Positions 1-63,448 of a stretch of DNA of 64,000 bases are shown one piece after another (within the stretch, counting starts at the first letter, position 1; every line of letters begins with the position of its first letter). A program made the position numbers and the translations under genes. Source of the DNA: a virus; IMG/VR virus record IMGVR_UViG_3300015360_000032, positions 1 through 64,000 of that record. One strand, written 5' to 3'. The notes under the pieces are model-generated. The model was given only the letters and a program-made list of their open reading frames with translations, was not told the origin of the DNA and did not search any database.

Positions 1-1153
1 GAGCCAGTGCGTTGTGGGCTATGCCCAGAACGTCGCGCAGAGCATCGTACGGCTTCTTCATGAAGTCGTCTTTATACTCGATGGGTATCTCTTCTACCCA
101 CGAGCCTGCGGGCATCTCCTCGTTGTCGCTCAGCACGCGCGTATCGTGGTGAATGTCATTGCCGATCACGAGACGAAACTTGCGGCCAGAGAACCGCGAG
201 GCAGGAACAACATCGTACTGCCTGCGGTTGTAAATATACGTGCTCTTGATGCCTTGGGCTTCCACGAATCTCTTGTGCTTGTCGGTGAAGTCCCCGCGAT
301 ACTTGGTCGATGAAGATGCAAAGATGATCCCGAGCATAGGTCCTGGGCGGGTGAAACGGCCGCGCTTGCGTCGTGTCATGGTGCTGTGTACTTGCTGGGC
401 CTGATCGTAGAGGCCGGCTCTGCCGCTCGATAGCTCTGCTTTCTTCGAGCGCAACACAACGTTCATGAAATTAATTTCATCAATAATGCCGCCAATGATG
501 GCCTCACCGAGGATGGCATCCTCGTCTCCGCCAGACTGTGCCACACGAATGTTCTTTTCCTCGAAGTACATCTCGGATTCAATGAGCTTGGTCGGTAAGA
601 AATACTTCTGAAAATAAGGCATTGACTCCACAAACTTCCGCATCGGAACATAGATAACTTTGTTGATGACGCGCGGCTTTGCTCCCATGATGGCGAACAC
701 AATAGAGGTGGTGCTTGGCAGCCCGTAGATGGCCTGAGGGTTCTTCAGGCAGGACAACAAATAGAGATGGTACAGGGTGGTAATCATAGCGACGGACGTT
801 TTGCCCGTAGCCGTGGCCCCCATGAGAATCGCCTCGTTGTACGCACCGTATTCGGTACCTTTCCACCATTTGCAATTGATTTCAATAATTGCCTTGCGGA
901 CCTCGGGCCAAAGTTCAAGGTCCGTCGCGGCAAGAAATTCAGTGCTGTCGATGAACTCTTCAATGCTGACTGGCGTGCGCTCCAATTGCATCATGAAGCG
1001 GAACAGGGAATCATCTCCGTCTAAGTGTCGCTTCACCCCATCGCGGTACATCTCCGCGAACATGCGGTTCTTTACCGTACCTGCCATCGTCTCGACGGCA
1101 TTCAGGAATCGTTGTCTCTTCCGCGCGTTGGCGAACTGCTGTACCTGTGTCAC
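1..1153 (-). CDS. terL: Terminase large subunit, N-terminal ATPase part (runs off window)
   Basis: Not in the ORF track; translated by hand from GTG at 1153, which overlaps the upstream TGA. Open to base 1, with Walker A LMGATATGKTS and Walker B GGIIDEINF; follows a TerS-like gene. Confidence 0.85.
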   Translation of the reverse strand, partial: MTQVQQFANARKRQRFLNAVETMAGTVKNRMFAEMYRDGVKRHLDGDDSLFRFMMQLERTPVSIEEFIDSTEFLAATDLELWPEVRKAIIEINCKWWKGTEYGAYNEAILMGATATGKTSVAMITTLYHLYLLSCLKNPQAIYGLPSTTSIVFAIMGAKPRVINKVIYVPMRKFVESMPYFQKYFLPTKLIESEMYFEEKNIRVAQSGGDEDAILGEAIIGGIIDEINFMNVVLRSKKAELSSGRAGLYDQAQQVHSTMTRRKRGRFTRPGPMLGIIFASSSTKYRGDFTDKHKRFVEAQGIKSTYIYNRRQYDVVPASRFSGRKFRLVIGNDIHHDTRVLSDNEEMPAGSWVEEIPIEYKDDFMKKPYDALRDVLGIAHNALA

Positions 1154-1992
1154 AAACTCTCTACCTCGTTAGAGCTACTGGTAGCGTCAATGTCATCGAA
1201 GGTCATGGGGCCGAAGCCTCCCGCGCGGGGAGCAGCGTCAACCGTGTCATCGTCCTTCAGGCTGTTCATCAACTCTAGCGTTTGAAGCATCAGGTTCTGT
1301 ACGTCAGAGACGTTCGATCCATCATCCGCGCGGCGGAACCGAAGCACATCGAAGACGCCTGCGGTATTGAGAAAGCGCGTACGGTCAGCGTTTGCCGCAA
1401 GTGCAGTCCGCATAGCTGCCAGCTTCATGGGCGTGGGTACTGCCTGGATGGCATTGCCGTTCTCGTCCGTGCGGGCACCAGAGGATGCGATACGCATTGC
1501 CATGCCAGAGATTTCGTCATAGATGGCCTGCTGCCCGCCGATCATCTCTTCGATGTTCAACTGAGTCGCCGCCTCTCTCAAACGGCGCTTCAATTCAGCG
1601 CGATCTTTCTCAACGGTCGAGATGGATACCTGTAGCTGTCGAGCTATCTCGTCCAGGGGAATATTGCGCATTAAGAGTCGATTAAGCAGTGTCAATCGAA
1701 ACTCTTTGGCATACGCTGCGCTGCCTGCTGCCTGTACGGCATTCATGCGTGTGCGCGGGTTCTCTTTGTCCGCGAGTACAGGCGGGTGAAATTGCCCTGC
1801 ACGTATGCGGCGCGACATGGCTTCCGGATTAACCGCATCATCTACTTCATCAGGCTCTGAGTCATCAAGGTCTGATGCACGTAGAGACTCGGACTGGGTT
1901 GAGGTACTTGCACTGAACCCCCCGCCTCCTGCTGAACGGGCGCGGCGCAGGATGACACGTCTGCGCGCGGGCGGAGGGGCATCGTCACTCAT
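1150..1992 (-). CDS. Probable terminase small subunit (HTH)
   Basis: HTH-like IPLDEIARQLQVSISTVEKD plus helical region; translationally coupled to terL. Confidence 0.7.
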   Translation of the reverse strand: MSDDAPPPARRRVILRRARSAGGGGFSASTSTQSESLRASDLDDSEPDEVDDAVNPEAMSRRIRAGQFHPPVLADKENPRTRMNAVQAAGSAAYAKEFRLTLLNRLLMRNIPLDEIARQLQVSISTVEKDRAELKRRLREAATQLNIEEMIGGQQAIYDEISGMAMRIASSGARTDENGNAIQAVPTPMKLAAMRTALAANADRTRFLNTAGVFDVLRFRRADDGSNVSDVQNLMLQTLELMNSLKDDDTVDAAPRAGGFGPMTFDDIDATSSSNEVESL

Positions 1993-2801: not shown

Positions 2802-2952
2802 TAGCTATCGCGTTAGACACGACGATCATGAAGACAGTTACTCTAAATATCCCGTCTTCCCTCGTGTTCCCCTTAGCCCCTAGAGCCAGGAGAATAACCC
2901 AAACTAATATGTTCCCCCATAGAAAAACACTGACAAATGAAATCAATTTCAT
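2788..2952 (-). CDS. Small membrane protein (54 aa, MKLISFVSVFLWGNILVWVILLALG...)
   Basis: Hand-translated; ATGA overlap with the upstream stop; two hydrophobic segments. Confidence 0.55.
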   Translation of the reverse strand: MKLISFVSVFLWGNILVWVILLALGAKGNTREDGIFRVTVFMIVVSNAIAIAMH

Positions 2953-3960: not shown

Positions 3961-4292
3961 CCCCAGCCCTCGGGTAGGCGGCAGTTCTTTGTGGCCCCGA
4001 CAAAGAAGGGTTTGATATCAGTTTCAAAATAGCCCGCGAGGCCGCAGCCTATCTTGGTCACTTCAAATTCAAGCTCTGGGTTGTTGGCGGCGTATCTAAG
4101 AAACTCCGCGACGTACGCCTTGATATAGCCAAGTGGCAGCGGCCTTAGGTAAATGTCCTTCGTCGGGATGGCATAGCTATTGCCTGTCGGCCCGCGACCT
4201 ACCCCCTGCTTGGCTTGATAGTTCTCGCGGGCAAACAGAGCCGCACCCTTGCCGTGCCGGCCTGCAAGATTGCTGCCGAATACGAAGATCAT
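3957..4292 (-). CDS. Conserved phage protein of the IFVFGSN (A1S_2505-like, macro-related) family
   Basis: IFVFGSNLAGRHGKGAA, YAIPTKD and VTKIGCGLAG motifs. Confidence 0.75.
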   Translation of the reverse strand: MIFVFGSNLAGRHGKGAALFARENYQAKQGVGRGPTGNSYAIPTKDIYLRPLPLGYIKAYVAEFLRYAANNPELEFEVTKIGCGLAGYFETDIKPFFVGATKNCRLPEGWG

Positions 4293-6062: not shown

Positions 6063-6260
6063 TCATATCAGTCCTTTGTCGAGGGCGATCCATTCAGGTA
6101 CGAAGACGCTGGTGATCCCGTAGCCCTCTCCCGTCTGGTCTGTGATCTGTGACAAAGGAATCCACGCGGGCATCTTTGCTTCAGTCTCAATCAACAGTGC
6201 TTTGTCCGTGACCATCTTGACTTTGCAATTGATTTCAATCGTACCGTCTTTCTTGCTCAT
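6063..6260 (-). CDS. Small conserved phage hypothetical protein
   Basis: TDKALL...WIPLSQI...PEWIA pattern. Confidence 0.65.
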   Translation of the reverse strand: MSKKDGTIEINCKVKMVTDKALLIETEAKMPAWIPLSQITDQTGEGYGITSVFVPEWIALDKGLI

Positions 6261-6432: not shown

Positions 6433-7956
6433 TTAAACCTTTGTCATGAGTCGTTTGCTGAAAGCTGCTCTTGCCTCTTTGGCAAGCCCCATTGTACTCC
6501 CGTCTCTGAAGGGCAGGCTACCGAACTCGAAGTCCAATGCCTCCCCGAGCGCCTTCACATTGATGCCCTTCGCAGCGGTGAGGCGGAAGTAGAAGACATT
6601 GCCACCCGGCCAAAAGTCACTGCTCTTCCAGAAGGTTTCGAACATGGCAGATGCCTCATTCGTGGTGTGAAACTTCTGCACCTTGGGGTTGTTCATGAAG
6701 TCGCCAAGCCGTACCCCGGGCTCGCTGTCAAACGTGAAGTAGTTGGCATTGCGGATGCCACCATACTCGTAGTTGTAATCAGAGATGTCTCGGCACGTAC
6801 CGTAGATCACAGTGGTGCGGGTGCATAGCGCGTGGACTATGGCGAGTACACACATGCGGTCCCGTAGGAATGGAATTGAATTCAGTACTGAGCAAAGGAA
6901 GATGCTGTTGAACTTCAGCTTAGGGTCTTCGATTGCCCGCAAAAATGCTTTGACTTGCTGGCGGGAATACGATGGGCTCGGGAAGCCCGCATCACCTTCG
7001 GGGTCGATCCTGTACGGCTCGAAATCATATGCATCAATGCCCTTTGTTCTGAGATATGGCGCAGCTTTGCCGAGCCCCGCGCCAAAGTCCAGCAAGGCAG
7101 GGCCGTGCATGTCGCGGAACTTGCGCCAGTAATCCACGGAGTACGAATCCTTATCAGGAAGCGTACGTTCACCGTTAGCCCAAAACCGCATTGCTTTGGG
7201 AACCGCACCACGATTGTTCTGAGGGCGGCGGTAGGCGGAAGCACGAAGTAGTTTTTCGAAATCACCATCGACTGCAAAGTCCATCGAAAGATAGTTTAGA
7301 AAATTGAGCGCCACTTCTGCATGAGCATCTGGTATGCGGATGACAGGCCAATCTGTCTCCCCGGCTTCAAGGGCCGCGAACGCGCGGTGTACCCCGTTAA
7401 CGATCTTGCCAGAGATAGACGCAACGACAGGAATCTTGATGCCCATCCTAAACGGCACAAGGGCCATGTTAGCAGCCTTCTTGTCGTAGCGTTCCGCCTG
7501 CCCCTGAGTAAGCGGGGCAAGCTTCTCCGTACGGCAGTTGAGCGCGAACCAATTTTCCCCCTCGAAGTCGGGCAAAGATTCGGCAGCCTTGACCACCTCC
7601 GCAAGATCAAGTTTGCCCGCCGCCTTGCTGCCAGTGTCGAACGCAGTAAAGTCGTTCGTAGCGCGATTGAAAACAAGGTTAATGCCACGTCTCTGATCCT
7701 CCGTCAGTTCAACGACAACGATGGGTACGTTTTTGAAATCAATTTCATTGGCAACCCGTGTACGCTGGTGCCCTGACAAAAGCATGCCCCCTGCCGTGAT
7801 GAAAAGGGGCTGAATGAACCCTAGCTTTTTGAGGGAAAGCTTGAGGAGTCCTAGGCGCGCGGCATCCGCCTTGCGTGGGTTCTCTTTGTCGGGAAATACC
7901 TGCGAAATGGCTAGGTTTCTAACGAGAGATGGGCGGGCCGTACGCTTGATGACCAT
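6433..7956 (-). CDS. Tandem ParB/Srx-fold domains fused to a C-terminal SAM-dependent methyltransferase
   Basis: ENPR...LLSGHQR and KIVNGVHR (ParB GxxR boxes); LLDFGAGLG (motif I) and IFLCSVLNSIP (motif IV-like). Confidence 0.8.
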   Translation of the reverse strand: MVIKRTARPSLVRNLAISQVFPDKENPRKADAARLGLLKLSLKKLGFIQPLFITAGGMLLSGHQRTRVANEIDFKNVPIVVVELTEDQRRGINLVFNRATNDFTAFDTGSKAAGKLDLAEVVKAAESLPDFEGENWFALNCRTEKLAPLTQGQAERYDKKAANMALVPFRMGIKIPVVASISGKIVNGVHRAFAALEAGETDWPVIRIPDAHAEVALNFLNYLSMDFAVDGDFEKLLRASAYRRPQNNRGAVPKAMRFWANGERTLPDKDSYSVDYWRKFRDMHGPALLDFGAGLGKAAPYLRTKGIDAYDFEPYRIDPEGDAGFPSPSYSRQQVKAFLRAIEDPKLKFNSIFLCSVLNSIPFLRDRMCVLAIVHALCTRTTVIYGTCRDISDYNYEYGGIRNANYFTFDSEPGVRLGDFMNNPKVQKFHTTNEASAMFETFWKSSDFWPGGNVFYFRLTAAKGINVKALGEALDFEFGSLPFRDGSTMGLAKEARAAFSKRLMTKV

Positions 7957-7961: not shown

Positions 7962-8657
7962 TTACTCCGTGATCCCAAGCCTGCGCTTGATTTCATTCGT
8001 GATCGCAACCTCAGAGAAATTATGCAGTTGTCGAATACCATCCGCCCATACCCTGTACTGCTGAACGGGTAGGAAGAATACTATCTCCCCTAGCACAAAT
8101 CTAGCGGTCTGAGGGGAGCGCCGATTCTGTGAGCCGGCTGCATCTGCGGTAGCCTGCTGCGCGCTGGCTGCGGCGTCTAGACAATCGGCTCCCACGACTT
8201 CATTCAAGCAATCAATCTCTTCCTGGTTCCAGCCGAATTGAGTCCAGTCGATACCGGCATCGCCCAGCTTGGAGATTTCCCCCGCGAGTAGATCGAAGTC
8301 CCAGGTAGCGGACTCGGATACCTTGTTGTCTACAAGGCGGAACGTATTGATTTGCTCCTGCGTCAGGTTCTCCGCGCGGATGCAAGGCACCTCGGTCATG
8401 CCCAGTAACTTAGCGGCTTCAGTTCTCGTGTGCCCTGCGACAAGGATATTGTTCTCGTCAATGACACACGGGACAAGGAAGCCGAAGTTACGAATGGACT
8501 CCGCGACTGCCGGAATGGCTTTCTCATTGTCTCGTGGGTTGAAAGGATACGGGGTGATGTCCGTCAAGTCCACGTATTCAAACTTGACTCTGCGGTGTAT
8601 GTTGACTGGCGCAACCTCGGGCCGGCGCGTTCGTCTTTGAATGTTGGCAGTTGCCAT
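7962..8657 (-). CDS. ParB N-terminal (ParB/Srx) domain protein
   Basis: PYPFNPRDN, SIRNFGFLVP, ILVAGHTR, FRLVDNK. Start moved to ATG 8657 because the longer ORF crosses a terminator and the upstream gene. Confidence 0.85.
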   Translation of the reverse strand: MATANIQRRTRRPEVAPVNIHRRVKFEYVDLTDITPYPFNPRDNEKAIPAVAESIRNFGFLVPCVIDENNILVAGHTRTEAAKLLGMTEVPCIRAENLTQEQINTFRLVDNKVSESATWDFDLLAGEISKLGDAGIDWTQFGWNQEEIDCLNEVVGADCLDAAASAQQATADAAGSQNRRSPQTARFVLGEIVFFLPVQQYRVWADGIRQLHNFSEVAITNEIKRRLGITE

Positions 8658-10159: not shown

Positions 10160-10765
10160 CTATCTGGGATTTGAAATCAATTGCAACTTGCCTTTGGTAA
10201 TCGGGGTCTGTCGAAGTGCCTCCAACCGATCCGATTTTCCTGCCTTTTCCGTGGGATTTCTAGCGCCACATTTCATTTCCCCTAGCAACATTAAACCAAT
10301 AGCATCTGCTTCGTCATGTTGATTTACGGTGATGCCGAATCGTACTTGCAGGGCTGTAGCAATTCCACGCTTTTCTGCCCGGCCATTGAGTGCGATAACC
10401 GACTTCATCATGGTAGGTGCTATTTCAATATAGTCAATACCCTGCTCCCATAACATCGTTTTCAGGACGCCTCCAAGCTCGCCTAGATGGAAGACATTGT
10501 TGTTCATCTTCCCCCCTGCCCCCATAGCATAGTCCTCATACACAACGAGGGTCGGCTTGGCTGCTTCGATAACCTTAGAAAGCATAAGCCTAATGTAGTA
10601 GAGCCGGTGCGGCCCCCTAAGAGGAGATGTCGTGATCGTGCCAGAGACTACCCTGTCTCCGTGTAGGTAAGCATAACCTGTGCTGCTAAGCGACGGGTCG
10701 ATGCCCAGTATTCTAGGGCGCGCGACGGAGGGCAGAGGAGATGCTGATCTTCTTAGGAGCTTCAT
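10160..10765 (-). CDS. ruvC: RuvC-like Holliday junction resolvase
   Basis: ILGIDPSLSSTG, VVYEDY, ELGGV and DEADAIGL motifs. Confidence 0.85.
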   Translation of the reverse strand: MKLLRRSASPLPSVARPRILGIDPSLSSTGYAYLHGDRVVSGTITTSPLRGPHRLYYIRLMLSKVIEAAKPTLVVYEDYAMGAGGKMNNNVFHLGELGGVLKTMLWEQGIDYIEIAPTMMKSVIALNGRAEKRGIATALQVRFGITVNQHDEADAIGLMLLGEMKCGARNPTEKAGKSDRLEALRQTPITKGKLQLISNPR

Positions 10766-11702
10766 TATTGGTCCCGAAACATGTTGCGCAAACTTCGCAG
10801 TTCTTTGCCTGTGTGACTTGCGCGCTAGCGCAGATACGGGGCGGCAAATTGCCCCCTTCTCGCGCCTGCTTGATCGCTAGGGCATCGGCATAGAGAGGAG
10901 CCAGCCTAGCTACCTCTTCCGGCGCATTCAGCGTAAATTCCTTGACCGGCGAGCCGCTATAGAGCCATCCCCGAGTGATGTAGAGGATTGATATCCGGTC
11001 GGTGAGTCGGTAGCCCTGGCGGTGCAACAGGTCCCAGTAAAAGAGAGTCTGGATTACATGCTCTGGTTTGGGCCTGACTAACTCTTTCCAAGCGTCGTGT
11101 GAAATTGATTTCAATTCGTTGACGTGCAGAGCTTGAAGATCAATCTCGTACGTGATCAGGTCAGGGTTACCGACTACCTTGTGAACGTCATCGCGCACAG
11201 AGAACTCGCGGTAGAAGCACTTGGGGGTGTGGCAGTTGCTACAGAGCTTGGCCTGATCCACCTGTGACAGCAAGGTAGGAACGGAAGTCTTCTGTGTCTT
11301 GCACTGGCATTGCCATAGACCCCACACTCTTTCTGGGTGTGCGGAGGACGCGCGGCGCTTGACCACATCATGAACGACATCCCCCTGCGCAAAAGTAAGT
11401 TCATCAAAGAAGCTCACGCCTTGGGGCTTCGTGGACATGCCAAGCTGCTCGATCAACGCAACCTTGCGTACGCATCTGCCGATCAGGTCTGACACATGCA
11501 TGTAGTCATTGGTGCGCGGTGGCCTTCCCCGCGTGCGGCTCTTACTGAGAATGCCTGACAGCGGTAAGGCTTCCTTGTCCAGCTTGGCAACCGTCCCGTC
11601 TTGAAGAATCTCGCCACTCACCATGCCGGGGTTGACCACCTCACGCTTGATGGTAAGCGCGCCCAACCTACCGGCGAGGGATCGTCGGGTTACCGATGGC
11701 AT
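10713..11702 (-). CDS. PD-(D/E)XK (Cas4-like) exonuclease
   Basis: HVSDL..C, GDVVHD, GNPD...NELKS, QTLFY and C-terminal Cys cluster. Confidence 0.75.
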   Translation of the reverse strand: MPSVTRRSLAGRLGALTIKREVVNPGMVSGEILQDGTVAKLDKEALPLSGILSKSRTRGRPPRTNDYMHVSDLIGRCVRKVALIEQLGMSTKPQGVSFFDELTFAQGDVVHDVVKRRASSAHPERVWGLWQCQCKTQKTSVPTLLSQVDQAKLCSNCHTPKCFYREFSVRDDVHKVVGNPDLITYEIDLQALHVNELKSISHDAWKELVRPKPEHVIQTLFYWDLLHRQGYRLTDRISILYITRGWLYSGSPVKEFTLNAPEEVARLAPLYADALAIKQAREGGNLPPRICASAQVTQAKNCEVCATCFGTNNEAPKKISISSALRRAP

Positions 11703-12287: not shown

Positions 12288-12309
12288 GTCCCGCCCCTTG
12301 AAATCAATT

Positions 12310-17661: not shown

Positions 17662-17673
17662 TTGAACTTGATT

Positions 17674-18021
17674 TCAAAGTCCAAGGTCCGCTAGGTACTC
17701 AGCGGCGAAGAGCATGAAGAAGGGATCGTAGGGGTTTTCGTAGGTTGCACAAAGCATCGTGCAAACAGTCGTGCCTGCCTGTAGGAAGACATATTTCTCG
17801 TGGGACCAGTCGAGATAGCCCTGGCGATACTCATCGGTCGCGGCTTCAATCAACACGGAGCTTATCGGCCCGTACTCTAGATGCTTATCCCCTGCCGCAA
17901 TACGAAAGGGCACTCGTCCCGGGTTGATCGGGCAGTAGTCTACCCAGAGGTTGCCGCTTTGGTTGAAGTATTCAGCCTTTGCCCCGCGCGCTATGGCAAA
18001 CTTAACTCGATCTATCATCAT
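17674..18021 (-). CDS. Hypothetical protein
   Basis: ORF with RBS. Confidence 0.55.
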   Translation of the reverse strand: MMIDRVKFAIARGAKAEYFNQSGNLWVDYCPINPGRVPFRIAAGDKHLEYGPISSVLIEAATDEYRQGYLDWSHEKYVFLQAGTTVCTMLCATYENPYDPFFMLFAAEYLADLGL

Positions 18022-38021: not shown

Positions 38022-38048
38022 ATCAGTTTCCTTAGATTGAAATCAATT

Positions 38049-42046: not shown

Positions 42047-42067
42047 CGTTATTCCTTGAAATCAATT

Positions 42068-49700: not shown

Positions 49701-52184
49701 CTGAACGATCTTGTCCACTTTCTGGGTATCAAGCTCTCCGCGCACATCAAGGTTTTCGCGCAATGCTTTTGTCTGTGCTTCAATCGCTTCTGTCTGCGCT
49801 ACCCACTTTTTCTTCGCCTCTTCGACAGCGATAGCTTGGTCCCTGTTCGCCTTGGACGTAAGGCCAATGGCATCGGTCAGACGCTGGAAAAGAGGAGACA
49901 GTTTATCGATGATGCCGAGCATGTCGGCAATGGTGAATAGGATACTCACCCAGAAAAACGCCCCTGCCGCAATACGAGCCAGACCGAGCAAGCCGCTTGC
50001 AATGGTACGCATAGCAATACCAAGACTATTAAATGCAGTCTTGGCGGCATTCGTAGCGGTGGTAAGCGCGAAGACTTTACTTGTCGCCCCAGATACGGCT
50101 GCGCCCGCTGTACCTGCCTCTGCTGCCAAGTTTGAGGCGTTGTTAGCTCTGGTATTTTTGCGGGTATTAAGACCGTCTAGTGTGCCGTTTCTCTGGATTA
50201 GAGCAAGACGCTGTGCATTGGTTTGTTTCTGTAGCTCTGCATTATCGATAGCCGCTTGCCTAGCGTAATACGCCTGTGTCGAGCGAATCTGCCTATCGTA
50301 GGAAGCCTGAGTCAGCGCGATCTGGTTTGCTTTCTCAGCTTGGAGTGAGGCAAGTCCCTTGCGTGTACCTGTAGCATCAATGACGGCGCGGTCAGCGTTA
50401 TACTTTGTTTGAATCTGAATCAAACGTTGCTGCTTCAGAGTTTCCGCAGCCGCAATTTTCTCGGCTAACACCTTTTGCTGTTGAACAACAGCCGCGGCTT
50501 GTCTTGCTTCGGCATCGCGCAGAGCTTGACGCTGCGCCGAGGCATTGGCAGAGGCAGTAGCAATGCGCGGGTCTAGTGCGGTGACGGAAGACTGCGCTTG
50601 AAATTTTTGCTGTTCTTTATTCTTGAAAGCAAGCTGTGCAGCCTGCAACTCCCCCTGGGCTACTTTCTGTCTATCAATCGAAGCGTTGTATGTGTTTTGT
50701 AATGCGACGGCTTCTTTAATCCCTAGCGCGGTGAGTGCCCAGTTCTTGACTATTGAACCGGACAGTGTACCTTGCGTAGCTAGGGCTCCTGCGCTGGCGG
50801 TACTTAGTTTGCCTGTTGCTACGGTGGCGGCTGTTGCCCCGATTGCAATCGATTTCAAAGTCACACCAAACAAGCTGAACTTGCCGACGATGCCAATGAT
50901 CGTCTCTGCAAGCTTCAGGCTGATGAAGACCTGGAGAACGCGGATGAAGTTATCCCAGTTAATATTGAATCCCGCGACTACCTTGATAGCAGTAGCGAAG
51001 AATCCTATGAGCCCGCCTATAGCAGCGACTGCGGTGTCAACGAACGTCCTGACCCCCGGGGTTTGCAATGCGGCAGAAAGTTCCCGGGTGTACCTAGTTA
51101 ATGGCTCAAGCAAAGCATTGGCACTATCCGTACCAAGTTTGAACAACGTGTTGCGAAGAATTTCCGCTTGCTTGTTAAGCGTGTTGAGGACAACAGACTG
51201 CTCTTTGATGGCAGAGAGTCCCGACTTGCCCTCAGTGGCGGATTCAAAGTTCTTTGTCAGAACCGTATTGTTTACGTCTTGAATTAGCTTATTGATTAGC
51301 GCGCCAATTCGCCCGCCGCCAAAAAGCTTAACGATTTGCGCTTGTTGATCCTGCGGCTTGAGCTTGCGCAAGCCATCGAGGACAAGCTTGATTGTGCTTA
51401 GACCGTCTGCTTTAAGCAGGCCGATAAAGTCGTCTGCCGATCCCGCGAACCCAACACCCGCCCTGTTCAAGATCGCGGCAAACTTGTCCGCATCCTCAAA
51501 CATGGAGGAGAAAACCTTGGTAAACGAGGTGCCAACCACTTCAGCCGATTGGCCGAAGTCCAAACCCGTTGCGGCCAGCGCGGCTACCTGATCTAGCTTA
51601 AGAGAGCCCGCTGCATCACCGATCCGCCGAATAACGTCCAACAAGTCTTTGCCGTTGGCGGTAGAGTTGTTCGATACCTCATTGAAGATGGATACCGCGT
51701 TTTCCACCTCTTTCAGCGGTACCTTGAAGATGTTGACGATCTTGCCGATATTATCGCCAGCCTCTTCGGCGGTAATATCGAGCACAGATGCCATGCGTTG
51801 CACCGCGTCCGTGAACGCCACAACACCTTCAACCCCGAATCGGCCTAGACCCTGCTCGCCGGCAATGGCTGCGATCTTCGCAAGGTCGAGCGCGGAGATG
51901 TTTGTCCTCAGGGACATATCCAGCAAGGCAGTGCCAAGCTGATCAATACTTCCCTTTGTCTTGGCTAGCTCACCGCGCGTGAAGTCGGTGGTCTTTGAGA
52001 CGTTCGCCAATGCCTCTTCAAAGTCAGCCGCAGCCCGGATAGGCGCAGTGCTGATCCGAAGAGCCGCGAGCGAGGCACTGATGGCCCCGACTACGCGGAT
52101 GATTCTGGATTCAAGTTTGCTGAGGTCGGGGCTGAGTTCGTCTCGACCCCGGATTACTACGTCGATCTGGCTGGTTTGGGCCAT
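46779..52184 (-). CDS. Tape measure protein (TP901 family)
   Basis: 1801 aa, helical and Ala-rich; AADFEEALANVSKT core; FHEGG...EVPAIL C-terminus. Confidence 0.93.
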   Translation of the reverse strand: MAQTSQIDVVIRGRDELSPDLSKLESRIIRVVGAISASLAALRISTAPIRAAADFEEALANVSKTTDFTRGELAKTKGSIDQLGTALLDMSLRTNISALDLAKIAAIAGEQGLGRFGVEGVVAFTDAVQRMASVLDITAEEAGDNIGKIVNIFKVPLKEVENAVSIFNEVSNNSTANGKDLLDVIRRIGDAAGSLKLDQVAALAATGLDFGQSAEVVGTSFTKVFSSMFEDADKFAAILNRAGVGFAGSADDFIGLLKADGLSTIKLVLDGLRKLKPQDQQAQIVKLFGGGRIGALINKLIQDVNNTVLTKNFESATEGKSGLSAIKEQSVVLNTLNKQAEILRNTLFKLGTDSANALLEPLTRYTRELSAALQTPGVRTFVDTAVAAIGGLIGFFATAIKVVAGFNINWDNFIRVLQVFISLKLAETIIGIVGKFSLFGVTLKSIAIGATAATVATGKLSTASAGALATQGTLSGSIVKNWALTALGIKEAVALQNTYNASIDRQKVAQGELQAAQLAFKNKEQQKFQAQSSVTALDPRIATASANASAQRQALRDAEARQAAAVVQQQKVLAEKIAAAETLKQQRLIQIQTKYNADRAVIDATGTRKGLASLQAEKANQIALTQASYDRQIRSTQAYYARQAAIDNAELQKQTNAQRLALIQRNGTLDGLNTRKNTRANNASNLAAEAGTAGAAVSGATSKVFALTTATNAAKTAFNSLGIAMRTIASGLLGLARIAAGAFFWVSILFTIADMLGIIDKLSPLFQRLTDAIGLTSKANRDQAIAVEEAKKKWVAQTEAIEAQTKALRENLDVRGELDTQKVDKIVQQAARSDSPQQRETATKQLGSILAASDPNQTKKIGEEERKNIEDLIRIQEQALIEGRNRLLQRQEDLNDALRVSARQPNNPALKGPVEFLKKDIEALEATQVKARDQMDAYSARLQGVADTANRTGAAFQAIAPLIQSMFTDETVRVVNAYLIPVVKAQTEIERLTELYKTQIAAAQSGGDAAKKTAEETNAQVKDQRVALDSLKLSMDTFIKTLLSMPGISKAAKDALTALPGSTFFTLAQAEAEGLINALKIKTAKGFTGKNAQVPDGKATGGLAAPAKTGGGEESEARKLARAQLAFKKVVAENELKLKEGINKQLAAADQKLYDEGLISISSFYKEKQRIEIANIDAEIKRKNSDKAAAEFELTKPKLKGSEKVRLETDLERTKGDLKVLEQRRLEIPVDIKFNIEQAQQQFAQSAKQLTATLFTDGFLPQNVDQIFAANFDALLGAQQKFVDELRANGRGDLAEALLASLNVKAFESSIQPITNAMERVYTKLGQDQQRIDIARATGSITAQEAERAYADVVQQTIPKIEEQIRLYQKQLDVLKLTEGVTQDVMDRQIAQIDALRLKLQQLFLETDKVARDLNKSITDSLSDALQRIGIDKFKDVVKDFLRSVVGSVQKLFADKIAEEIIRGIGSGGAGGVGGFFQKVLQKPDGNGPLGTAVDPIYVRNFDALAGTASTLGNVVNNAGNTSTGASSQVQGGNPITGLFNAVFPGLGGIISGIGGLFGVGTTPGSSGGFTGKADGSPINPFYVKNVDGTLIPDPRKTPLGNVTKTADPNIGPPDPNAPGGITGMLNSFITQIDDVLFKLTDTLLSVFEGLGSSLSDLFSGLFSGGGAGGGGGIGSLVGLFASFFHEGGDVANGGRQRLVNPAVFKNAQKFHDGVNKVSGLKSNEVPAILEKAETVLTERQNQSIDTALTAGASGKEVSIRSVLVTDPKFVPDAMSSAQGEQVLLNFVSRNRSTLRQMIGR

Positions 52185-53363: not shown

Positions 53364-53385
53364 TGCTTTGAAATCAATTTCAAAG

Positions 53386-55197: not shown

Positions 55198-55865
55198 CAG
55201 CTATCTCTTGCCTCGCCCCAGATCACTTGCTGTCGCGGGCGCTGATACCGGCTGTAGATTCGGGTGGTAATAATTCTTTGCAGACTGGACGAGACGAAAT
55301 TGGTGTCCATCTCCTTAGTCAGTCGCGGCGATAGATGCTCGACGCGATACCACTGCACAAGACAATCAACAACAATTGCCTTTAGCCATAGAGGGATGTT
55401 TTCTAGAACTCTTTGACACTCATCGTAAGGGGTAGGCAAAGGGGATGGCGTGATCGGCTCAAACCCAGAGATGTACGAAACAGTGATCACCCCTTTGTTC
55501 CAGTTTTCAAGGGTGATGATCCCTTTATGAAGATCGATGTCGTCTTCCGCCGTGAAATCAATTTCAATTCCCTCCGCGTCGAACATCTGCAACGTGTCGG
55601 GTACAACAAATCCGTTGGTCAGGCGCAGAATCAACGTAGGCGTGGGCGGGTTCAGCGAGGGAAAAGTCGGCGCGATATAGGCGGGCAAACGAAACCGATC
55701 AACATGCTCGCCCAGGGTAAGGCTATCCACATTCAGAGCATCCTCTACCCGGGGGGTGATTAGCTCTAGGATCGAAATCATTCCCGCGTCTGTGTCGGAA
55801 ATTACAGACCCCCCGCAGCTAGCTCCTATGGCTAATGCGACTGCTGACGGTGAAATCAAAAGCAT
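55197..55865 (-). CDS. Head-tail connector protein
   Basis: ITVSYISGF...IP.WLK pattern; position. Confidence 0.65.
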   Translation of the reverse strand: MLLISPSAVALAIGASCGGSVISDTDAGMISILELITPRVEDALNVDSLTLGEHVDRFRLPAYIAPTFPSLNPPTPTLILRLTNGFVVPDTLQMFDAEGIEIDFTAEDDIDLHKGIITLENWNKGVITVSYISGFEPITPSPLPTPYDECQRVLENIPLWLKAIVVDCLVQWYRVEHLSPRLTKEMDTNFVSSSLQRIITTRIYSRYQRPRQQVIWGEARDS

Positions 55866-56642: not shown

Positions 56643-59261
56643 TTAGACACTAAAAGTGTCGCCTTCGCCACAGGGCTCTACAGCATCTTCTGGTTGGGCA
56701 CATACCTCTACGTTATCCGTCTCGCCATAAACGATAACAGTGTCTTCTTCCGCGCCTATGATTATCTGGCCTGCAAGGATTGCCCCGCCGACTCTGACAG
56801 TAGGCAGACGGCCTAGGATTACTACCGTGCCAGTGCCTGCGTTAGCTGTCTTGCTAACCGTCGCGGTAGGGGCAAAACCTTGAAGCGCAATAGAGCCCGC
56901 ACCGACCTCTAGGGCTGACTTTGTTGTCTGCGGGGTTTGCCCTTCGACGCGGATAAGTCCTGACGGAACCCCGACGAAGACATTTCCGTCAATCCGAGGC
57001 GCCTGCCCTTGGGTAGATACTGACCCCGCGCCAGCTTGTATGACGACACTTACGACAACCGTAGGTGCGGGGCCTTCTAGCGAAACTGCTCCCGCGCCAG
57101 GACTAGCCGACGAAGCTGCACTCGCCGAAGGCGTCTGGCCTGCAACAGATACGACGCCCGAGCCCGGCTGGGTCAGTTGGTTGCCAAGAATCGTAGAGGT
57201 TTGACCCGCAACCGATACCGACCCCACGCCCGGTGAGACAACGAAGCCAACATTTACGATGGGGGCTGCCCCGGCTATCGTGACCTGTCCACTTGTCGGC
57301 TGAGCAATACGGTTTTGGATGACCGTAGGCGCTAGGCCCGTGATCGAAACGTTGCCCGCACCCGGTTGCTCTATGGCGTTAACCAGTAGAGCCGGGGCCA
57401 GACCTGTGATCGAGACCGCGCCTGTCGGCACTCCAACCGCACGACCAATCAGTATGCTAGGCGTGAGCCCTTGAATCGCAATCGAGCCCGCAGGGATCGG
57501 CATACCCAGCAACAAGCCGGGTGCATAGCTGACAATCGAAATTTGCCCTGCGTTGGGCGCAAAATTAGTATTCCCCGGCGCAGTGATGATTACTGACGGG
57601 GCGCTTCCTGCAAGGGATATCAGGCCCGAGCCGGGAACAAAGACTCTGCCGGTTACCGCATTCGGCGCACGCCCTGTGAAATTGATTTCAAAAGTTGCAG
57701 GCTGGACGACGCGCCCAGACACCAGCGTAGACGTGAGTCCGCTGATCGATATAGAGCCGGCTCCGGGCTGGACAAGCCCGCCACGGATGATTGCGGGCGC
57801 TAGGCCGGCGAGGGAAACATTGCCCTGCCCTGGCTGCTCAATTTGCCCAATTAACGCCTGTGGGGCCTGCCCTGCTACCGAGAGAGCCCCTGCCCCTGGG
57901 CTGACGACGAATCCTCGAATAGCTGCGGTATTTTGCCCAACAAAAGCAACGCTACCGACCGCAACAGGGAAGGCGCGATCAAGACCCGGGGCTTGGCCGG
58001 ATACAGTGATTGCTCCGGGTCCTGGCTGCGCGATAGACCCGCGAAGGGCAATCGGGGTAAGACCAGTCAGCGTTACAGAGCCAGAAGCGGGAGTAGCTGC
58101 CGCTTCTTGGTTTAGAGAAGGTGTTTGTCCGTTTACCGCGATCTGGCCCGCACTCGGCGCGGCAACAGACCCGAGCAATGCAATCGGGGTCTGTCCTATT
58201 GCATTGACTGCCCCCGCGCCGACCGATATCGATACACCGGCTGACGCCGTGGTGAACGTGGCACTGACATCGACATTCGAGTCAGTCGTACCATCCGACC
58301 AAACAAACGCTAGCTTGTAATCAGTACCCGCTGTGAGTCCTGTGGCGGGATTCGACAGCGTAAAAGTCGTGGTCGCAGTGGGGGATGACTCATGGCCTGC
58401 CGCGATTGCTGCGCTGCTTGTGGCGTCTTGCCCAGCCTTGATTTGCGCAGCATTCGGCGCGCTGCCTGCGGCGGCATAGATTACCCAGTAAATCTGTGGA
58501 TTGACTAGGGTTTGGCCGATGACGTTAATTGCACCGACAGGAACGCTGATAACCGTGAAGTTAAGGACTGCGGGAGTCTGCCCAGCAATCGTGATGGAGC
58601 CGACTGGAACACCGATGATGGTCGGGGCGACAGCATCCGGAGTGAGACCTACAGACGTGATTACACCCGCGCCGATAGAGACGATGGTGTCTCTGAGAGC
58701 AACGGGTGTTTGGCCGGATACGGCGATAGTTCCCTGCGCGGGAGCAGTAATCGAGCCCACAAGGGCTATAGGCGGCGGGCCTGTGATTGTCGCCGCACCA
58801 GACCCTGGCGCGAGAATGTCACCTCTCAGTGAAATTGATTGCAATCCTGTGGTCGTGATTGCCCCGACTCCGGGGGAGGCAAACGCCGCTACAAAAGCAA
58901 CCGTGGTTTGCCCGGTAACAGTAACCGCCCCTTGAGCCACGCCAATAACCGTATCACGAAGAGCGACAGGAAGCTGCCCAGAAGCTGCAATAACGCCGGA
59001 AGGAATACCAATGAGTGTGGCTTGAGCAACAGCGGGGGTTTGCCCCGAGATGACGGTAGCCCCCTGCGCTACCTCAATGATCGTATCTCTTAGAAGTGCA
59101 GGAGTCTGGCCTGTAACGCCTATTGAACCGGAATCGGGCGTGACAGCGACGTTAGGGTCAGCGATTCCAAACGATAGAGACGAGTCGAACCACGCCAGCG
59201 GCGAGACGAACTGCGCGCCGAAGGGATCATTGATTGGGGAGGCTTTTCGGGGTAGAGGCAC
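56643..59261 (-). CDS. Repeat-rich virion fibre protein
   Basis: Dozens of ~21-aa repeats of type PGAGSISIAGQTP, with one inserted non-repeat domain. Confidence 0.7.
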   Translation of the reverse strand: MPLPRKASPINDPFGAQFVSPLAWFDSSLSFGIADPNVAVTPDSGSIGVTGQTPALLRDTIIEVAQGATVISGQTPAVAQATLIGIPSGVIAASGQLPVALRDTVIGVAQGAVTVTGQTTVAFVAAFASPGVGAITTTGLQSISLRGDILAPGSGAATITGPPPIALVGSITAPAQGTIAVSGQTPVALRDTIVSIGAGVITSVGLTPDAVAPTIIGVPVGSITIAGQTPAVLNFTVISVPVGAINVIGQTLVNPQIYWVIYAAAGSAPNAAQIKAGQDATSSAAIAAGHESSPTATTTFTLSNPATGLTAGTDYKLAFVWSDGTTDSNVDVSATFTTASAGVSISVGAGAVNAIGQTPIALLGSVAAPSAGQIAVNGQTPSLNQEAAATPASGSVTLTGLTPIALRGSIAQPGPGAITVSGQAPGLDRAFPVAVGSVAFVGQNTAAIRGFVVSPGAGALSVAGQAPQALIGQIEQPGQGNVSLAGLAPAIIRGGLVQPGAGSISISGLTSTLVSGRVVQPATFEINFTGRAPNAVTGRVFVPGSGLISLAGSAPSVIITAPGNTNFAPNAGQISIVSYAPGLLLGMPIPAGSIAIQGLTPSILIGRAVGVPTGAVSITGLAPALLVNAIEQPGAGNVSITGLAPTVIQNRIAQPTSGQVTIAGAAPIVNVGFVVSPGVGSVSVAGQTSTILGNQLTQPGSGVVSVAGQTPSASAASSASPGAGAVSLEGPAPTVVVSVVIQAGAGSVSTQGQAPRIDGNVFVGVPSGLIRVEGQTPQTTKSALEVGAGSIALQGFAPTATVSKTANAGTGTVVILGRLPTVRVGGAILAGQIIIGAEEDTVIVYGETDNVEVCAQPEDAVEPCGEGDTFSV

Positions 59262-61051: not shown

Positions 61052-63349
61052 TTAGCCTGTCACCGTCCAGCCTTTGGCCGTGGCAATACTAGGATTGTCC
61101 CCCGCCGTGCCGTAGTTATTGGAGACCGTTATGGTTCTCGCTGCGACTCCCGACTTCAGATTGGTGTAGATGCGGTTAAGCTCAGTGGCGGATAGTTTGC
61201 ATCCCGTATATGAGTGCGTAATAGGTGTTCCCGCGAGTGCGGCAGATTGCAGTGAGAAGCAGCTAATAAACATATTGCTGAAAATCGTACCTGCTGCCGT
61301 GTTGAACAGCGGTACAGATTGCAGAGTGCGGCAGTTATTAAACATGCTGCCGAAATTCGTACCTGCTGCCGTGTTGAACAGCGGTACAGATTGCAGTGAG
61401 TAGCAGTTAATAAACATGCTGCTGAAATTCGTACCTGCTGCCGTGTTGAACAGCGGTACAGATTGCAGAGCGCGGCAGTTATTAAACATGTTGCTGAAAC
61501 TCGTACCTGCTGCCGTGTTGAACAGTGGTACAGATTGCAATGCGAAGCAGTTAATAAACATGCTGCTGAAACTCGTACCTGCTGCCGTGTTGAACAGTGG
61601 TACAGATTGCAATGCGAAGCAGTTATTAAACATGTTGCTGAAACCCGTACCTGCTGCCGTGTTGAACAGCGGTAGGGATTGCAGTGCGAGGCAGCTAATA
61701 AACATGCTGCTGAAATTCGTACCTGCTGCCGTGTTGAACAGCGGTACAGATTGCAGTGAGTAGCAGCTAATAAACATGCTGCTGAAATTCGTACCTGCTG
61801 CCGTGTTGAACAGCGGTAGGGATTGCAGTGCGGAGCAGCTATTAAACATGCTGCTGAAATCCGCACCTGCTGCCGTGTTGAACAGCGGTAGGGATTGCAG
61901 TGAGTAGCAGTTAATAAACATGCTGCTGAAACTCGTACCTGCTGCCGTGTTGAACAGTGGTAGGGATTGCAGTGCGGAGCAGCTATTAAACATGTTGCTG
62001 AAATTCGTACCACGCACCACGTTGCCGCTGCCGTCTGTAGTTAACGCTATTGCATCCCCACCATAACTAAAGGCGACCTGAAAAGTATTGGCTGTCTGAC
62101 CAACAACAAAGTAGCTTGAGTAGGCACTGATTTCGGTTGTGCTGGTGATGCTGGTGAAGATCGCGGTATCACCATTGCGAAACCCGTGGGCCGTTGCGGT
62201 TACTGTGTCACCAGCATCTTGGAAAGTGCAAGCCAGAGTGGCGGAAGCGGTAGCGCTAGTCACCAACTGCGCTATGTTGAGCAATTTATAGTTGTTGAAA
62301 AACAGATAGTCTAGTTGCCGCAAATCGCTGTTAACTATGCTGGCTCTTTGTAGCTCAGAAAAATTAATGACCTGTGTAGGGTCCCCAGGAGTTTGCACTC
62401 CGATCCGCAAATCTGTCATCGCGGCAAACGACATTGCGATGTCTAAGAACAGGGATGAGTAAGTCTGCAACAACGCTGTTGAATGTTTGACGTGCAAATT
62501 CAACTGGGTGATGGTTGAAGCGTTTGGCACTACTGTGATGATGACTTGACGGTACTGGGGGACATAGACCGACCCGCTGCCGTTTGTAGTCAATGCAATT
62601 GCAGACCCGCCAATCGTCGAAGCTACTTGGAATGTGTTGGTTGTTTGACTGACCACGTAGTAAGTGGTGTACGTGCTGATGCCGGTGGTGCTGGTAATCG
62701 CCGAGAAGGCGACAGCCCGTCCGTTTGCCCAACCGTGAGCATTAAGGGTTACGGTATCCCCCGTGTCCTGAAAAGTGCAAGCCACTGCGGTTGCAATACC
62801 TACGTCAGAGGTATTGAGAGCGCTGGCCCAGGTGATTTCCTTTTCAGCCGTGCCCCCGCTGGCTACGTTTTGCGTAGCAGAGCCATCACCCCAGTCAACC
62901 GTGTAGTTGCCGGCAGCAGAGAATGCTACGAAATTGCCTTCGGGCCAGACAGCGTGCAATCCTGCGAACTTCTCATCGCTTGAGATGATCGAAGGCATCG
63001 CCAACCACGCGGCGGGGCGAACCCAGGTACTCACTGGTCCGATTGATGTGCCGGAAGCAATGGAGGCAACTTCGAGCTTCGATGCAAAGACCGGCGAGTC
63101 GCGGTGATCGGTGAGGTTGCGCTTGTAGCAAATCAGAAAGCCAAACTCACCAACGGCCAGACCTGTCACGTTGTCGAGGTCAATCTTGATCCAACCATCC
63201 GCGTCTGTGGTCAAGACTCCCGACTTTCCCTTGATCTGGGTAAAGTCAACAACGGAAGCTGAGTCTAGCCACACGACTTCAATCGCAGTCTGATTCGCCA
63301 TGGGCGAGCCGGCTGCGTTGTATAGACGAACTTCTACGCCCTTAGGCAT
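61052..63349 (-). CDS. BspA/DUF285-type leucine-rich-repeat adhesin-like protein
   Basis: Eleven 24-aa repeats; VDWGDG motif; duplicated TFQDxGDTVT..AHG module. Confidence 0.8.
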   Translation of the reverse strand: MPKGVEVRLYNAAGSPMANQTAIEVVWLDSASVVDFTQIKGKSGVLTTDADGWIKIDLDNVTGLAVGEFGFLICYKRNLTDHRDSPVFASKLEVASIASGTSIGPVSTWVRPAAWLAMPSIISSDEKFAGLHAVWPEGNFVAFSAAGNYTVDWGDGSATQNVASGGTAEKEITWASALNTSDVGIATAVACTFQDTGDTVTLNAHGWANGRAVAFSAITSTTGISTYTTYYVVSQTTNTFQVASTIGGSAIALTTNGSGSVYVPQYRQVIITVVPNASTITQLNLHVKHSTALLQTYSSLFLDIAMSFAAMTDLRIGVQTPGDPTQVINFSELQRASIVNSDLRQLDYLFFNNYKLLNIAQLVTSATASATLACTFQDAGDTVTATAHGFRNGDTAIFTSITSTTEISAYSSYFVVGQTANTFQVAFSYGGDAIALTTDGSGNVVRGTNFSNMFNSCSALQSLPLFNTAAGTSFSSMFINCYSLQSLPLFNTAAGADFSSMFNSCSALQSLPLFNTAAGTNFSSMFISCYSLQSVPLFNTAAGTNFSSMFISCLALQSLPLFNTAAGTGFSNMFNNCFALQSVPLFNTAAGTSFSSMFINCFALQSVPLFNTAAGTSFSNMFNNCRALQSVPLFNTAAGTNFSSMFINCYSLQSVPLFNTAAGTNFGSMFNNCRTLQSVPLFNTAAGTIFSNMFISCFSLQSAALAGTPITHSYTGCKLSATELNRIYTNLKSGVAARTITVSNNYGTAGDNPSIATAKGWTVTG
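61243..62011 (-). repeat. Tandem 72-bp coding repeat, about 11 units
   Basis: Core ACCTGCTGCCGTGTTGAACA recurs every 72 bp from 61289 to 61937. Confidence 0.95.
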
Positions 63350-63448
63350 GTGGACTCCAGGCGGCGAAAACTAGGCGTGGGTAAGGTGCATTACTGCATT
63401 TTTGAAATCAATTTCAAAGCCCTAGGGTCGGGTTTACCCAAGCTACCC

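Follow-up and report, generated by a model that had tools for sequence, protein, structure and literature searches.

The DNA analysed here (the window) comprises bases 1-64000 of the IMG/VR virus record IMGVR_UViG_3300015360_000032, called G0 or G000 below, a contig of 80,923 bp (54% GC, estimated completeness 85%) whose start truncates the large-terminase (TerL) gene. Its genes lie nearly all on the minus strand, and a 16-bp palindrome, TTGAAAT-YR-ATTTCAA (TTGAAATNNATTTCAA), recurs both inside and between them. The genes are arranged in the order DnaB, polymerase, primase-like, superfamily 2 (SF2) helicase, small helix-turn-helix (HTH), RecA, Holliday-junction resolvase and Cas4-like exonuclease, followed by RuvC, a 441-aa protein, a ParB_N protein, a ParB_N-methyltransferase and ThyX. 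We consider the 441-aa protein as the candidate reader of the palindrome.

When 20 kb were compared with cultured phages by megablast, nothing matched, and relatives were reached via proteins alone; helicase searches, with a single protein or an alignment, found few loci. The sequencing runs listed for this sequence were DNA runs from microbial mats, with no RNA run among them. By its proteins, G0 is affiliated with Samunavirus—the lytic Pseudomonas aeruginosa siphophages SM1, PaMx31 and UF_RH6—at 45-60% identity and with full synteny, an affiliation that superseded the cyanophage origin suggested by tail-fibre matches. Vibrio phage SIO-2 is a more remote relative. A complete genome from an uncultured relative, G002 (G2; 104 kb, direct terminal repeats), shares synteny with G0 at 35-65% identity.

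Counts, spacing and placement of the palindrome

With a tolerance of two mismatches, the motif scan found 36 sites in the window, six of them exact, against 0.19 (maximum 2) and 0.00, respectively, in dinucleotide-preserving shuffles. A preliminary description of this DNA had estimated far less than one chance near-match and counted about 34 copies, a count that held. The whole of G0 carries 47 sites (9 exact, 38 at one mismatch or fewer), about one per 1.7 kb. Their centres are CA/TG in 39 cases, CG in five and TA in two, and the flanking bases favour W, T being preferred 5′ of the 16-mer and A 3′ of it, so that the symmetry grows to 18 bp. Next to the half-site TTGAAAT itself, GTGAAAT and ATGAAAT are the most frequent variants.

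The sites are spread more evenly than chance would place them. The coefficient of variation (CV) of their gaps is 0.60, where random placement gives 0.97 (P about 1e-4). At 4573 bp, the largest gap (58829 to 63402) compares with a random mean of 7.4 kb (P = 0.01). It matches the largest gap of about 4.6 kb described before, and the mean spacing, about 1.8 kb, likewise agrees with the earlier description. Despite this evenness, no fixed period was seen. Both orientations of the centre occur, as had been noted, with ratios relative to the gene strand of 15:14 in G0 and 20:13 in G2; orientation was likewise random in SM1, SIO-2 and a further genome, G007.

Read along the sense strand, the motif is T-TGA-AAT-TGA-TTTCAA or T-TGA-AAT-CAA-TTTCAA. 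The peptides LK(L/S)IS and EI(D/N)F come from two of its frames, and the third is used only where the TGA of the motif is the stop codon of the gene (eight sites genome-wide, six in the window and two beyond). We next to these counts place a codon test, in which synonymous codons were shuffled within each gene 300 times while every protein and the codon usage were kept: 31 sites lie wholly inside genes, compared with 5.2 +/- 1.9 (maximum 11) after shuffling. Since, in addition, the reading frame of the motif at one conserved site differs between relatives (67517, below), the data support the earlier proposal that selection acts on the DNA rather than on the protein.

The statement that most copies are inside genes was right for 31 of the 47 sites, but it overlooked a four-fold enrichment at gene boundaries, where 16 of the 47 (boundary or intergenic) are found versus an expected 7.8%, or about four (P = 3e-7). 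Perfect copies make up six of the 16 boundary sites and three of the 31 in-gene sites, and one of these three, at 75659, was counted as in-gene solely since its own TTG had been called as a start codon. The sites in the window, taken from the motif scan and the gene map, are the following (all palindromic, strand "."):

465..480: 2 mismatches; within the TerL gene, frame EINF
870..885: 1 mismatch; within the TerL gene
2937..2952: 2 mismatches; gene boundary, overlaps the stop of gene 2949-3164
4012..4027: 2 mismatches; in-gene
6223..6238: 1 mismatch; start codon 22 nt before
7733..7748: 1 mismatch; within the ParB_N-methyltransferase gene
10171..10186: 1 mismatch; start of the 441-aa gene 111 nt downstream, its -35-like hexamer 17 nt downstream
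11099..11114: 1 mismatch; within the exonuclease gene
12298..12313: perfect; RecA-like gene ends on the motif TGA
14686..14701: 1 mismatch; within the SF2 helicase gene
17662..17677: 1 mismatch; motif TGA is a stop codon, next ATG immediately after
19343..19358: perfect; within a 183-aa gene; G2 equivalent at 101184
22888..22903: 1 mismatch; within the DnaB-like gene
24041..24056: 1 mismatch; DnaB-like start codon 12 nt before
25605..25620: 1 mismatch; within a 465-aa gene
27410..27425: 2 mismatches; in-gene
27544..27559: 1 mismatch; TGA is a stop codon, then AGGAG, ATG 12 nt downstream
28674..28689: 1 mismatch; intergenic; equivalent G2 junction at 92826
31108..31123: 1 mismatch; flanked by a terminator and by a promoter-like element that precedes the AAA ATPase operon
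31900..31915: 2 mismatches; in-gene
32116..32131: weak, 2 mismatches (TTGCAATGGATTGCAA); in-gene
33130..33145: 1 mismatch; in-gene
35618..35633: 1 mismatch; intergenic; TAGCCA-N18-TATAAT promoter-like element 19 nt upstream
38037..38052: perfect; spans the gap from a stop (its own TGA) to the next ribosome-binding site and ATG
38781..38796: 1 mismatch; intergenic; ATG 16 nt after
42056..42071: perfect; TGA is a stop codon; next ATG 10 nt downstream
42934..42949: 2 mismatches; final codons of a 1287-aa gene
44166..44181: 1 mismatch; within the 1287-aa gene
48481..48496: 2 mismatches; within the 1801-aa tape-measure-like gene
48698..48713: 1 mismatch, CG centre; within the 1801-aa gene
50843..50858: 1 mismatch, CG centre; within the 1801-aa gene
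53368..53383: perfect; intergenic, after a 261-aa tail-like gene; equivalents at SM1 3839 and G2 69165
55552..55567: 1 mismatch; in-gene
57676..57691: 1 mismatch; within an 872-aa gene
58829..58844: 2 mismatches; within the 872-aa gene
63402..63417: perfect; intergenic; a 765-aa gene begins 53 nt later

Many boundary sites occupy the entire gap from a stop codon to the next ribosome-binding site, and many sites in G0, G2 and SM1 end 9-15 nt ahead of an ATG; because the genes are tightly packed, however, such adjacency is expected of any 16-bp element. A few sites overlap the -10/+1 region of a promoter. At the AAA ATPase operon junction, the site in G2 (89432) and in SM1 (23651) begins 7-12 nt past the -10 box. 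Overall, promoter-like (sigma70) and terminator-like elements were as frequent at the sites as in shuffles, so that a general association with promoters or terminators was dropped; promoters coincide with individual sites only. We likewise rejected the idea that a phage RNA polymerase or sigma factor uses the motif as its promoter, given the symmetry of the motif and its frequent position just 9-15 nt from an ATG. At 27544-27559 and 28674-28689, the first hexamer of the motif (TTGACA/TTGAAA) scores as a -35 element, a likeness that is probably incidental because the GTGCAA versions found in relatives do not keep it.

The array in related phages

The preliminary description had made conservation in related phages a check on its claim. 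The array is kept in seven distinct cultured or complete relatives, as well as in several contig fragments, with a common core, TG(A/C)AA-N4-TT(G/T)CA, around which the arms change symmetrically. This core persists among relatives with 25-65% protein identity and 45-63% GC, and reversed-pattern controls in the relatives always gave 0. The following forms were found:

G001, L124, L126, L127 and L131 (genomes of 47-61% GC): TTGAAAT-YR-ATTTCAA
L125: TTGCAAT-CG-ATTGCAA
L155: TGAAAT-CG-ATTTCA
G002, G003 and L157: GTGCAAT-YR-ATTGCAC; 35 sites in G002
SM1 (P. aeruginosa, Samunavirus): GTGCAA-R-CG-Y-TTGCAC; 33 sites, CV 0.63
Vibrio phage SIO-2: TG(A/C)AAT-YR-ATT(G/T)CA; 12 exact
Aeromonas phage HJ05: TTG(C/A)AAC-NN-GTTGCAA
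Rhizobium phage L338C: TGCAAC-NN-GTTGCA; 25 in 40 kb
Rhodobacter phage RcTiptonus: TGCAAT-CG-ATTGCA; 16 in 40 kb

A scan of viral contigs with the A-type motif returned mainly single chance matches in AT-rich contigs. The symmetric co-variation of the arms fits a dimeric, phage-encoded reader.

Individual positions are much less stable than the array. Between G0, G2 and SM1, only about one site in five (~20%) keeps its place, arguing that the density and evenness of the sites are maintained while most single sites turn over. The conserved positions, in G0 coordinates, include:

70546: ahead of the HNH/portal genes
67517: within a scaffold-like gene; read LKSIS in G0 and GAINC in G2
31108: promoter of the AAA ATPase operon
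53368: after the tail-like gene
10171: ahead of the 441-aa gene

At 67517, the motif frame differs between G0 and G2 though the downstream protein aligns. An in-frame ATG follows 10-11 nt past this site (in a 479-aa gene) and past the one at 64610 (in a 499-aa gene), and internal translation starts are possible at both. At the post-tail junction of G2 (69165) and SM1 (3839), the first three bases of the motif (ATG) are the start codon of the next gene; the two proteins starting there both open with MQ(S/T)(I/L)AP, encoded by the palindrome.

In one relative, G008 (L287-L292; IMGVR_UViG_3300033516_000084, 101 kb), 25 of 26 asymmetric sites have their centre facing one way with respect to the genes, which are on the minus strand (binomial P = 8e-7).

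Repeats of other kinds were seen in the same genomes. The G0 contig ends (80700-80923) in short tandem and interspersed repeats with units like CACCACTGCACCACT and CACCATAGACATA, and the assembly probably broke there because of them. A matching 1.2-kb non-coding region in G002 (37000-38200) is rich in repeats (CTCTATAGGG, CGGGCGGA, GCTGGTG-like) and is followed by seven palindrome sites in 4.5 kb; by its sequence, this region may be an origin or early control region. In SM1 (NC_041877, ~29460-29520), TCCAAAATTTGGCAC occurs twice as a direct repeat, with 8 bp between the copies, in an initiator-like gene adjoining DnaB, a homologue of window 24614-26011. The copies resemble iterons and could mark an origin within the initiator gene, which is also where the origin of phage lambda is located.

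The 441-aa protein as candidate reader

The protein that we favour as reader is singled out by motif co-occurrence, its predicted fold and a site upstream of its gene. This gene and the layout of its product are as follows:

8749-10074, minus strand: gene of the 441-aa candidate reader
Residues 27-110: SH3-like barrel
Residues 112-185: disordered acidic and Ala/Lys/Pro-rich tract
Residues ~200-350: predicted ParB/KorB-type HTH domain
Residues ~353-408: predicted ribbon-helix-helix-like end

In the tract at 112-185, PAKAA-type repeats come after an acidic stretch, a composition like that of histone-H1-like proteins; another protein with a tail of this kind is encoded at 78584-79126 of G0 (39686-40186 in G002). 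Within the genome, the 441-aa gene has the strongest codon bias (by far the top codon-usage score per codon) and a GC content at third codon positions (GC3) of 0.72, which suggests very high expression.

The C-terminal half of the structural model is helical and well predicted. We searched a domain-only model against 48,161 PDB chains, where the ParB-family matches, several of them to DNA-binding domains (DBDs), all fell in the top 21:

6s6h_B: ParB DBD on parS; Z 8.0, root-mean-square deviation (rmsd) 4.4, 115 aligned
1vz0_A: Spo0J; Z 7.6, rmsd 3.0, 104 aligned
1r71_A: KorB DBD on its operator; Z 6.3, 109/114 aligned
8qa8: KorB; Z 5.5
3mkw: SopB; Z 5.2
3vwb_A: VirB; Z 4.7
1zx4_A: P1 ParB; Z 4.2

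The full-length model gave the same ParB matches, and the last 55 residues resemble the ribbon-helix-helix proteins ArtA, NikR, MazE and Arc (Z 4-5). The models thus moderately favour, for the C-terminal part, a DNA-binding domain of the ParB/KorB/SopB/VirB type with a ribbon-helix-helix-like end. Other searches were less informative. With the full model, a Foldseek search of the PDB hit the SH3-like N-domain only, and hmmsearch of the family profile against PDB sequences returned only low-complexity matches. In the BFVD viral structure library, the nearest named relatives are DUF3102 proteins (E about 3e-3); the protein has no Pfam match to DUF3102 (PF11300) at E <= 0.01, protein-atlas leads to a ParB HTH and to DUF3102 were weak (template-modelling score 0.47 for DUF3102), and no paper on a function for DUF3102 was found in the library searched. 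Some homologues are labelled "putative single-stranded DNA binding protein", a label we dropped as unsupported because RcTiptonus has a separate gp32-like protein of that kind and because the predicted fold is HTH plus ribbon-helix-helix.

The family tracks the motif. All six cultured phages tested that have a homologue carry the array, and four of five contigs picked by multiple motif copies alone encode a family member (E 5e-123 to 3e-13); the fifth, G008, is 66% complete and no such gene was found in it. Only 54 of 50,697 phage records contain the family, and a profile search of genome contigs found four short contigs from metagenome-assembled genomes only, too little to point to a host or a prophage. 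In G0, G2, SM1, HJ05, L338C, RcTiptonus and G007, a site lies 96-144 nt upstream of the start of the family gene, just upstream of a sigma70-like promoter—an arrangement typical of an autoregulated DNA-binding protein. The candidate recognition helix, YRKA-x-YLIxIY, is kept in nine of nine phages, and its residue x varies with motif position 4: phages with A there have Met, those with mixed A/C have Asn, and those with C have Thr, Arg, Val or Phe. The SM1 homologue is gp050 (YP_009594461.1); in the same phage, gp051 is a ParB_N protein and gp052 the homologue of the ParB_N-methyltransferase. Of the candidates named in the preliminary description, the 441-aa protein is thus the best supported, by predicted fold, co-occurrence and the site upstream of its own promoter.

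Taken together, we find it somewhat probable—on models and comparative evidence—that the 441-aa protein, encoded by the phage itself, docks on the palindromes as a dimer. One HTH would read each heptamer, (T/G/A)TG(A/C)AAT, with a flexible pyrimidine-purine step at the centre. The ribbon-helix-helix-like C-terminal end would be the likely dimerisation module, and the rest of the protein would comprise the long acidic and lysine/alanine/proline-rich (histone-H1-like) linker and the SH3-like N-terminal barrel, with no ParB N-terminal CTPase domain. Evenly spread sites, about one per 1.7-3 kb, would yield a genome-wide array of bound dimers, with one site ahead of the protein's own promoter and others over -10/+1 regions or in gene gaps. 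Such an array could act as KorB does on RK2 or VirB on the Shigella plasmid, through dispersed sites and a single protein, so that the 441-aa protein would organise the whole phage chromosome and globally tune its transcription or accessibility in lytic growth. The neighbouring ParB_N proteins may participate. Our commitment is limited to an array of bound dimers that would organise or globally regulate the phage chromosome in lytic growth; marking or nicking by ParB_N proteins and anti-silencing are possible variants. The earlier suggestion of loading sites for a dimeric phage protein is thus supported in part, since the symmetric arm co-variation agrees with a dimeric reader; the coating, organising, marking or silencing of the genome that it proposed is hypothetical, and several observations speak against a stoperator-like silencing of a prophage (see below).

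Several observations weigh against a 441-aa reader. The fold matches are moderate, as Z values up to 8 fall in the range where helical domains match by chance, and the Rubisco factor Raf1 scores Z 8.6, level with the ParB matches. Pfam and PDB sequence searches detect no ParB HTH in the protein. It also has no CTPase domain of the sort that lets ParB and KorB slide: PF02195 (the ParB_N CTPase fold with its GERRxR-type motif) was not found in it, the N-terminus being an SH3-like barrel, and ParB_N is found instead in two separate downstream genes. A sliding clamp of the ParB/KorB/Noc type is thus not established, and no known clamp mechanism explains the even spacing, which would suit a process of limited range. 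Few independent lineages underlie the co-variation of residue and base. Moreover, the array-bearing phages form one broad group that shares a DnaB-helicase-RecA-TerL module, and because common descent partly confounds the comparison, co-occurrence does not fully tell the 441-family apart from the other genes in that module. Finally, the one-way centre in G008 is not accounted for by a purely symmetric reader.

Other readers, known systems and meaning

Three further genes encode products that could read or act on the sites in place of the 441-aa protein, or alongside it:

13857..14168, minus strand: 103-aa HTH_17/MerR-like protein, rival reader, just after the helicase gene (Pfam)
7962..8657, minus strand: 231-aa ParB_N-only protein (phrog_620; motif AGHTR, no recognisable HTH; role in the system putative)
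6433..7956, minus strand: 507-aa ParB_N and Methyltransf_23 fusion (phrog_5475; role in the system putative)

The small HTH_17/MerR-like protein might bind the palindrome as a dimeric transcription factor or as a roadblock at gene junctions. Pfam matches it to HTH_17, MerR_1 and HTH_23, its gene occupies the equivalent syntenic place in G2, SM1, SIO-2, HJ05, L338C and RcTiptonus, and Arg versus Lys at the start of its recognition helix separates A-type from C-type motifs in five sequences. That helix, however, is highly variable among phages with the same DNA core; a profile finds the protein in one or two of the five motif-selected contigs (not in G009 or G010), and tblastn among cultured phages reached Samunavirus only. 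We consider this reader rather improbable. Its open frame, at full extent 13857-14399 (minus strand), overlaps the 3′ end of the helicase gene (14165-15826, minus strand), and SM1 has the same overlap, with only a 62-aa remnant (gp044) annotated in its record.

Alternatively, the sites could be targets of the ParB_N proteins, acting alone or recruited by the 441-aa protein, either for marks by methylation or nicking or for a "split ParB" clamp driven by nucleoside triphosphates (NTPs) and put together from separate polypeptides. Two ParB_N genes directly follow the 441-aa gene in G0, G2, SM1 and G007, and G009 has one within about 1 kb of its 441-family gene. Fusions of ParB_N with methyltransferases are frequent in phages and some bind ATP (PMC12704722), and the even spacing of 1.7-3 kb is close to the 1.5-kb sliding range of KorB (PMC11790492). 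The two proteins, however, show no detectable HTH, and their Box II has GHTR in place of GERRxR. The complete genome G011 yielded no ParB_N homologue, no Pfam ParB_N was detected adjoining the SIO-2 homologue, and the target of a methyltransferase requires no over-representation. This role, too, strikes us as quite unlikely.

The remaining readings—an RNA hairpin, a host factor and a stoperator-like array—are unlikely. As RNA, the motif would form a short intergenic hairpin controlling translation start, mRNA processing or stability. All genes lying on one strand, every site is transcribed, and many adjoin a ribosome-binding site at the distance from the ATG given above. Yet the stem would have only six A/U-rich pairs around a 4-nt loop and be very weak, the centre faces either way along the sense strand with equal frequency, variants within the genome disrupt pairing with no compensation, and two-thirds of the sites are in-gene, the adjacency to ribosome-binding sites following from tight gene packing; a function in RNA thus appears highly improbable. 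Very little likelihood also attaches to a conserved host protein, nucleoid-associated or of the LacI type, that the phage would recruit or titrate. Its appeal is that a similar core occurs in phages of Pseudomonas, Vibrio, Aeromonas, Rhizobium and Rhodobacter, and that the motif resembles generic LacI/GalR operators; against it, the arms vary symmetrically between related phages, as for a reader that evolves with the phage, and a phage protein with a suitable predicted fold tracks the motif. Presumed likenesses to ARG-box, CRP/FNR, IHF and sigma54 sites were displaced by the ParB-type candidate.

Least credible is an array that silences a prophage via an immunity repressor. Cluster A mycobacteriophages carry many dispersed stoperators enriched in short gaps between genes, a distribution that the sites described here share. 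Stoperators, however, are asymmetric 13-bp sites in one orientation in temperate phages, and the sites found here are palindromic and randomly oriented. Furthermore, no tyrosine integrase was found in G000, G002, G007, G011 or SM1, and UF_RH6 is reported to be lytic (PMC10281142).

Among known systems, the nearest published description is that of Cluster O mycobacteriophages, in a paper that also names the Cluster A stoperators (PMC4351075). Their genomes of ~70 kb contain 34 copies of a 17-bp palindrome, TGTTCGG-N3-CCGAACA, about one third each intergenic, near gene starts and in-gene, with no meaningful orientation; it was judged a likely site for a dimeric protein, and only three generic DNA-binding proteins were proposed as readers (PMC4351075). 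Our array belongs descriptively to this class, in that a 7+7 inverted repeat is present in more than 30 copies throughout the genome, intergenic as well as in-gene and orientation-free; it differs in sequence, spacer (2 rather than 3), host phylum and phage lineage.

KorB, which binds the OB sites of IncP plasmid RK2, is a ParB-family protein that slides up to 1.5 kb from dispersed operators to repress promoters (PMC11790492). As here, copies of one palindrome are scattered across a mobile genome of 60-100 kb, the reader (here predicted; 1r71_A, Z 6.3) has a ParB-superfamily HTH, sites lie both near and far from promoters, and the array is not used for partition with ParA. KorB, however, has its own CTPase domain (GARRYR) and forms a sliding clamp that is locked by KorA (PMC11790492), whereas the 441-aa protein has no ParB_N domain. 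The phage array also differs in belonging to lytic phages, in having 3-4 times more sites, many of them in-gene, and in a sequence unrelated to OB.

VirB, an anti-silencer whose role is in transcription and not segregation, binds ATTTCAGtATGAAAT, with a half-site (A/G)(A/T)GAAAT like P1 ParB BoxA (PMC6410309). This inverted-repeat half-site is the same heptamer as the (T/G/A)TGAAAT of G0, and both VirB (3vwb_A, Z 4.7) and P1 ParB (1zx4_A, Z 4.2) have an HTH of the type predicted for our candidate. The halves, however, are everted: AAAT ends point outward across a 1-nt spacer in VirB sites and inward around a 2-nt YR centre in the phage sites, which ribbon-helix-helix-like dimerisation in place of the ParB C-domain could account for. 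VirB also differs in having a CTPase domain and few sites, and most phage relatives have TGCAA in place of TGAAA.

Noc/NBS and ParB/parS likewise combine 14-16-bp palindromes with ParB-type HTH dimers (6s6h_B, Z 8.0; 1vz0_A, Z 7.6), the Noc sites being many and dispersed, and at 16 bp (18 with flanks) and 47 copies the palindrome of G0 is within the 13-16-bp inverted-repeat format of ParB-superfamily sites. The parS sequence, TGTTTCAC-GTGAAACA, contains the word GTGAAA in the orientation opposite to that of the phage site. Unlike the 441-aa protein, Noc and ParB are CTP-dependent clamps with an N-terminal ParB domain, and their roles are in nucleoid occlusion and segregation. A ParABS system would include a Walker-type ParA ATPase, for which (PF13614, PF01656) G000, 85% complete, gave no match, while controls matched in 14 of 14 genomes.

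Dispersed operators read by ParB-family proteins were thus already known from plasmids (KorB on RK2, VirB). What is new here is an array, with spacing evener than chance, that is conserved over a wide group of lytic phages, several of them cultured (SM1 and other Samunavirus members, SIO-2 and relatives, L338C, RcTiptonus), together with a concrete candidate reader of unusual architecture and a site related to BoxA and virS with inverted geometry. In the library searched, we found no paper on these repeats in SM1/Samunavirus, SIO-2-like, RcTiptonus/RcF or L338C phages. A bolder proposal, to which we assign a low likelihood, is that the phages share an undescribed system of chromosome management. 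In it, a ParB-type protein with histone-H1-like tails, whose CTPase domain was lost or never present, would nucleate at evenly spaced, everted BoxA palindromes and, like VirB, keep a genome that is AT-richer than that of the host free of H-NS/MvaT-type silencers, or would form a "split ParB" clamp in trans with a stand-alone ParB_N NTPase; the system would extend to a large group of lytic siphophages infecting Alpha- and Gammaproteobacteria, and perhaps to unrelated jumbo phages.

As SM1 and its host are tractable in the laboratory, the purpose of genome-wide palindromes in phages is directly testable. Should the array prove to have such a role, it would also serve as a practical metagenome marker for this phage group, and if it controls the timing of transcription, DNA compaction or escape from host silencing, it would represent a general, overlooked layer of phage genome organisation.

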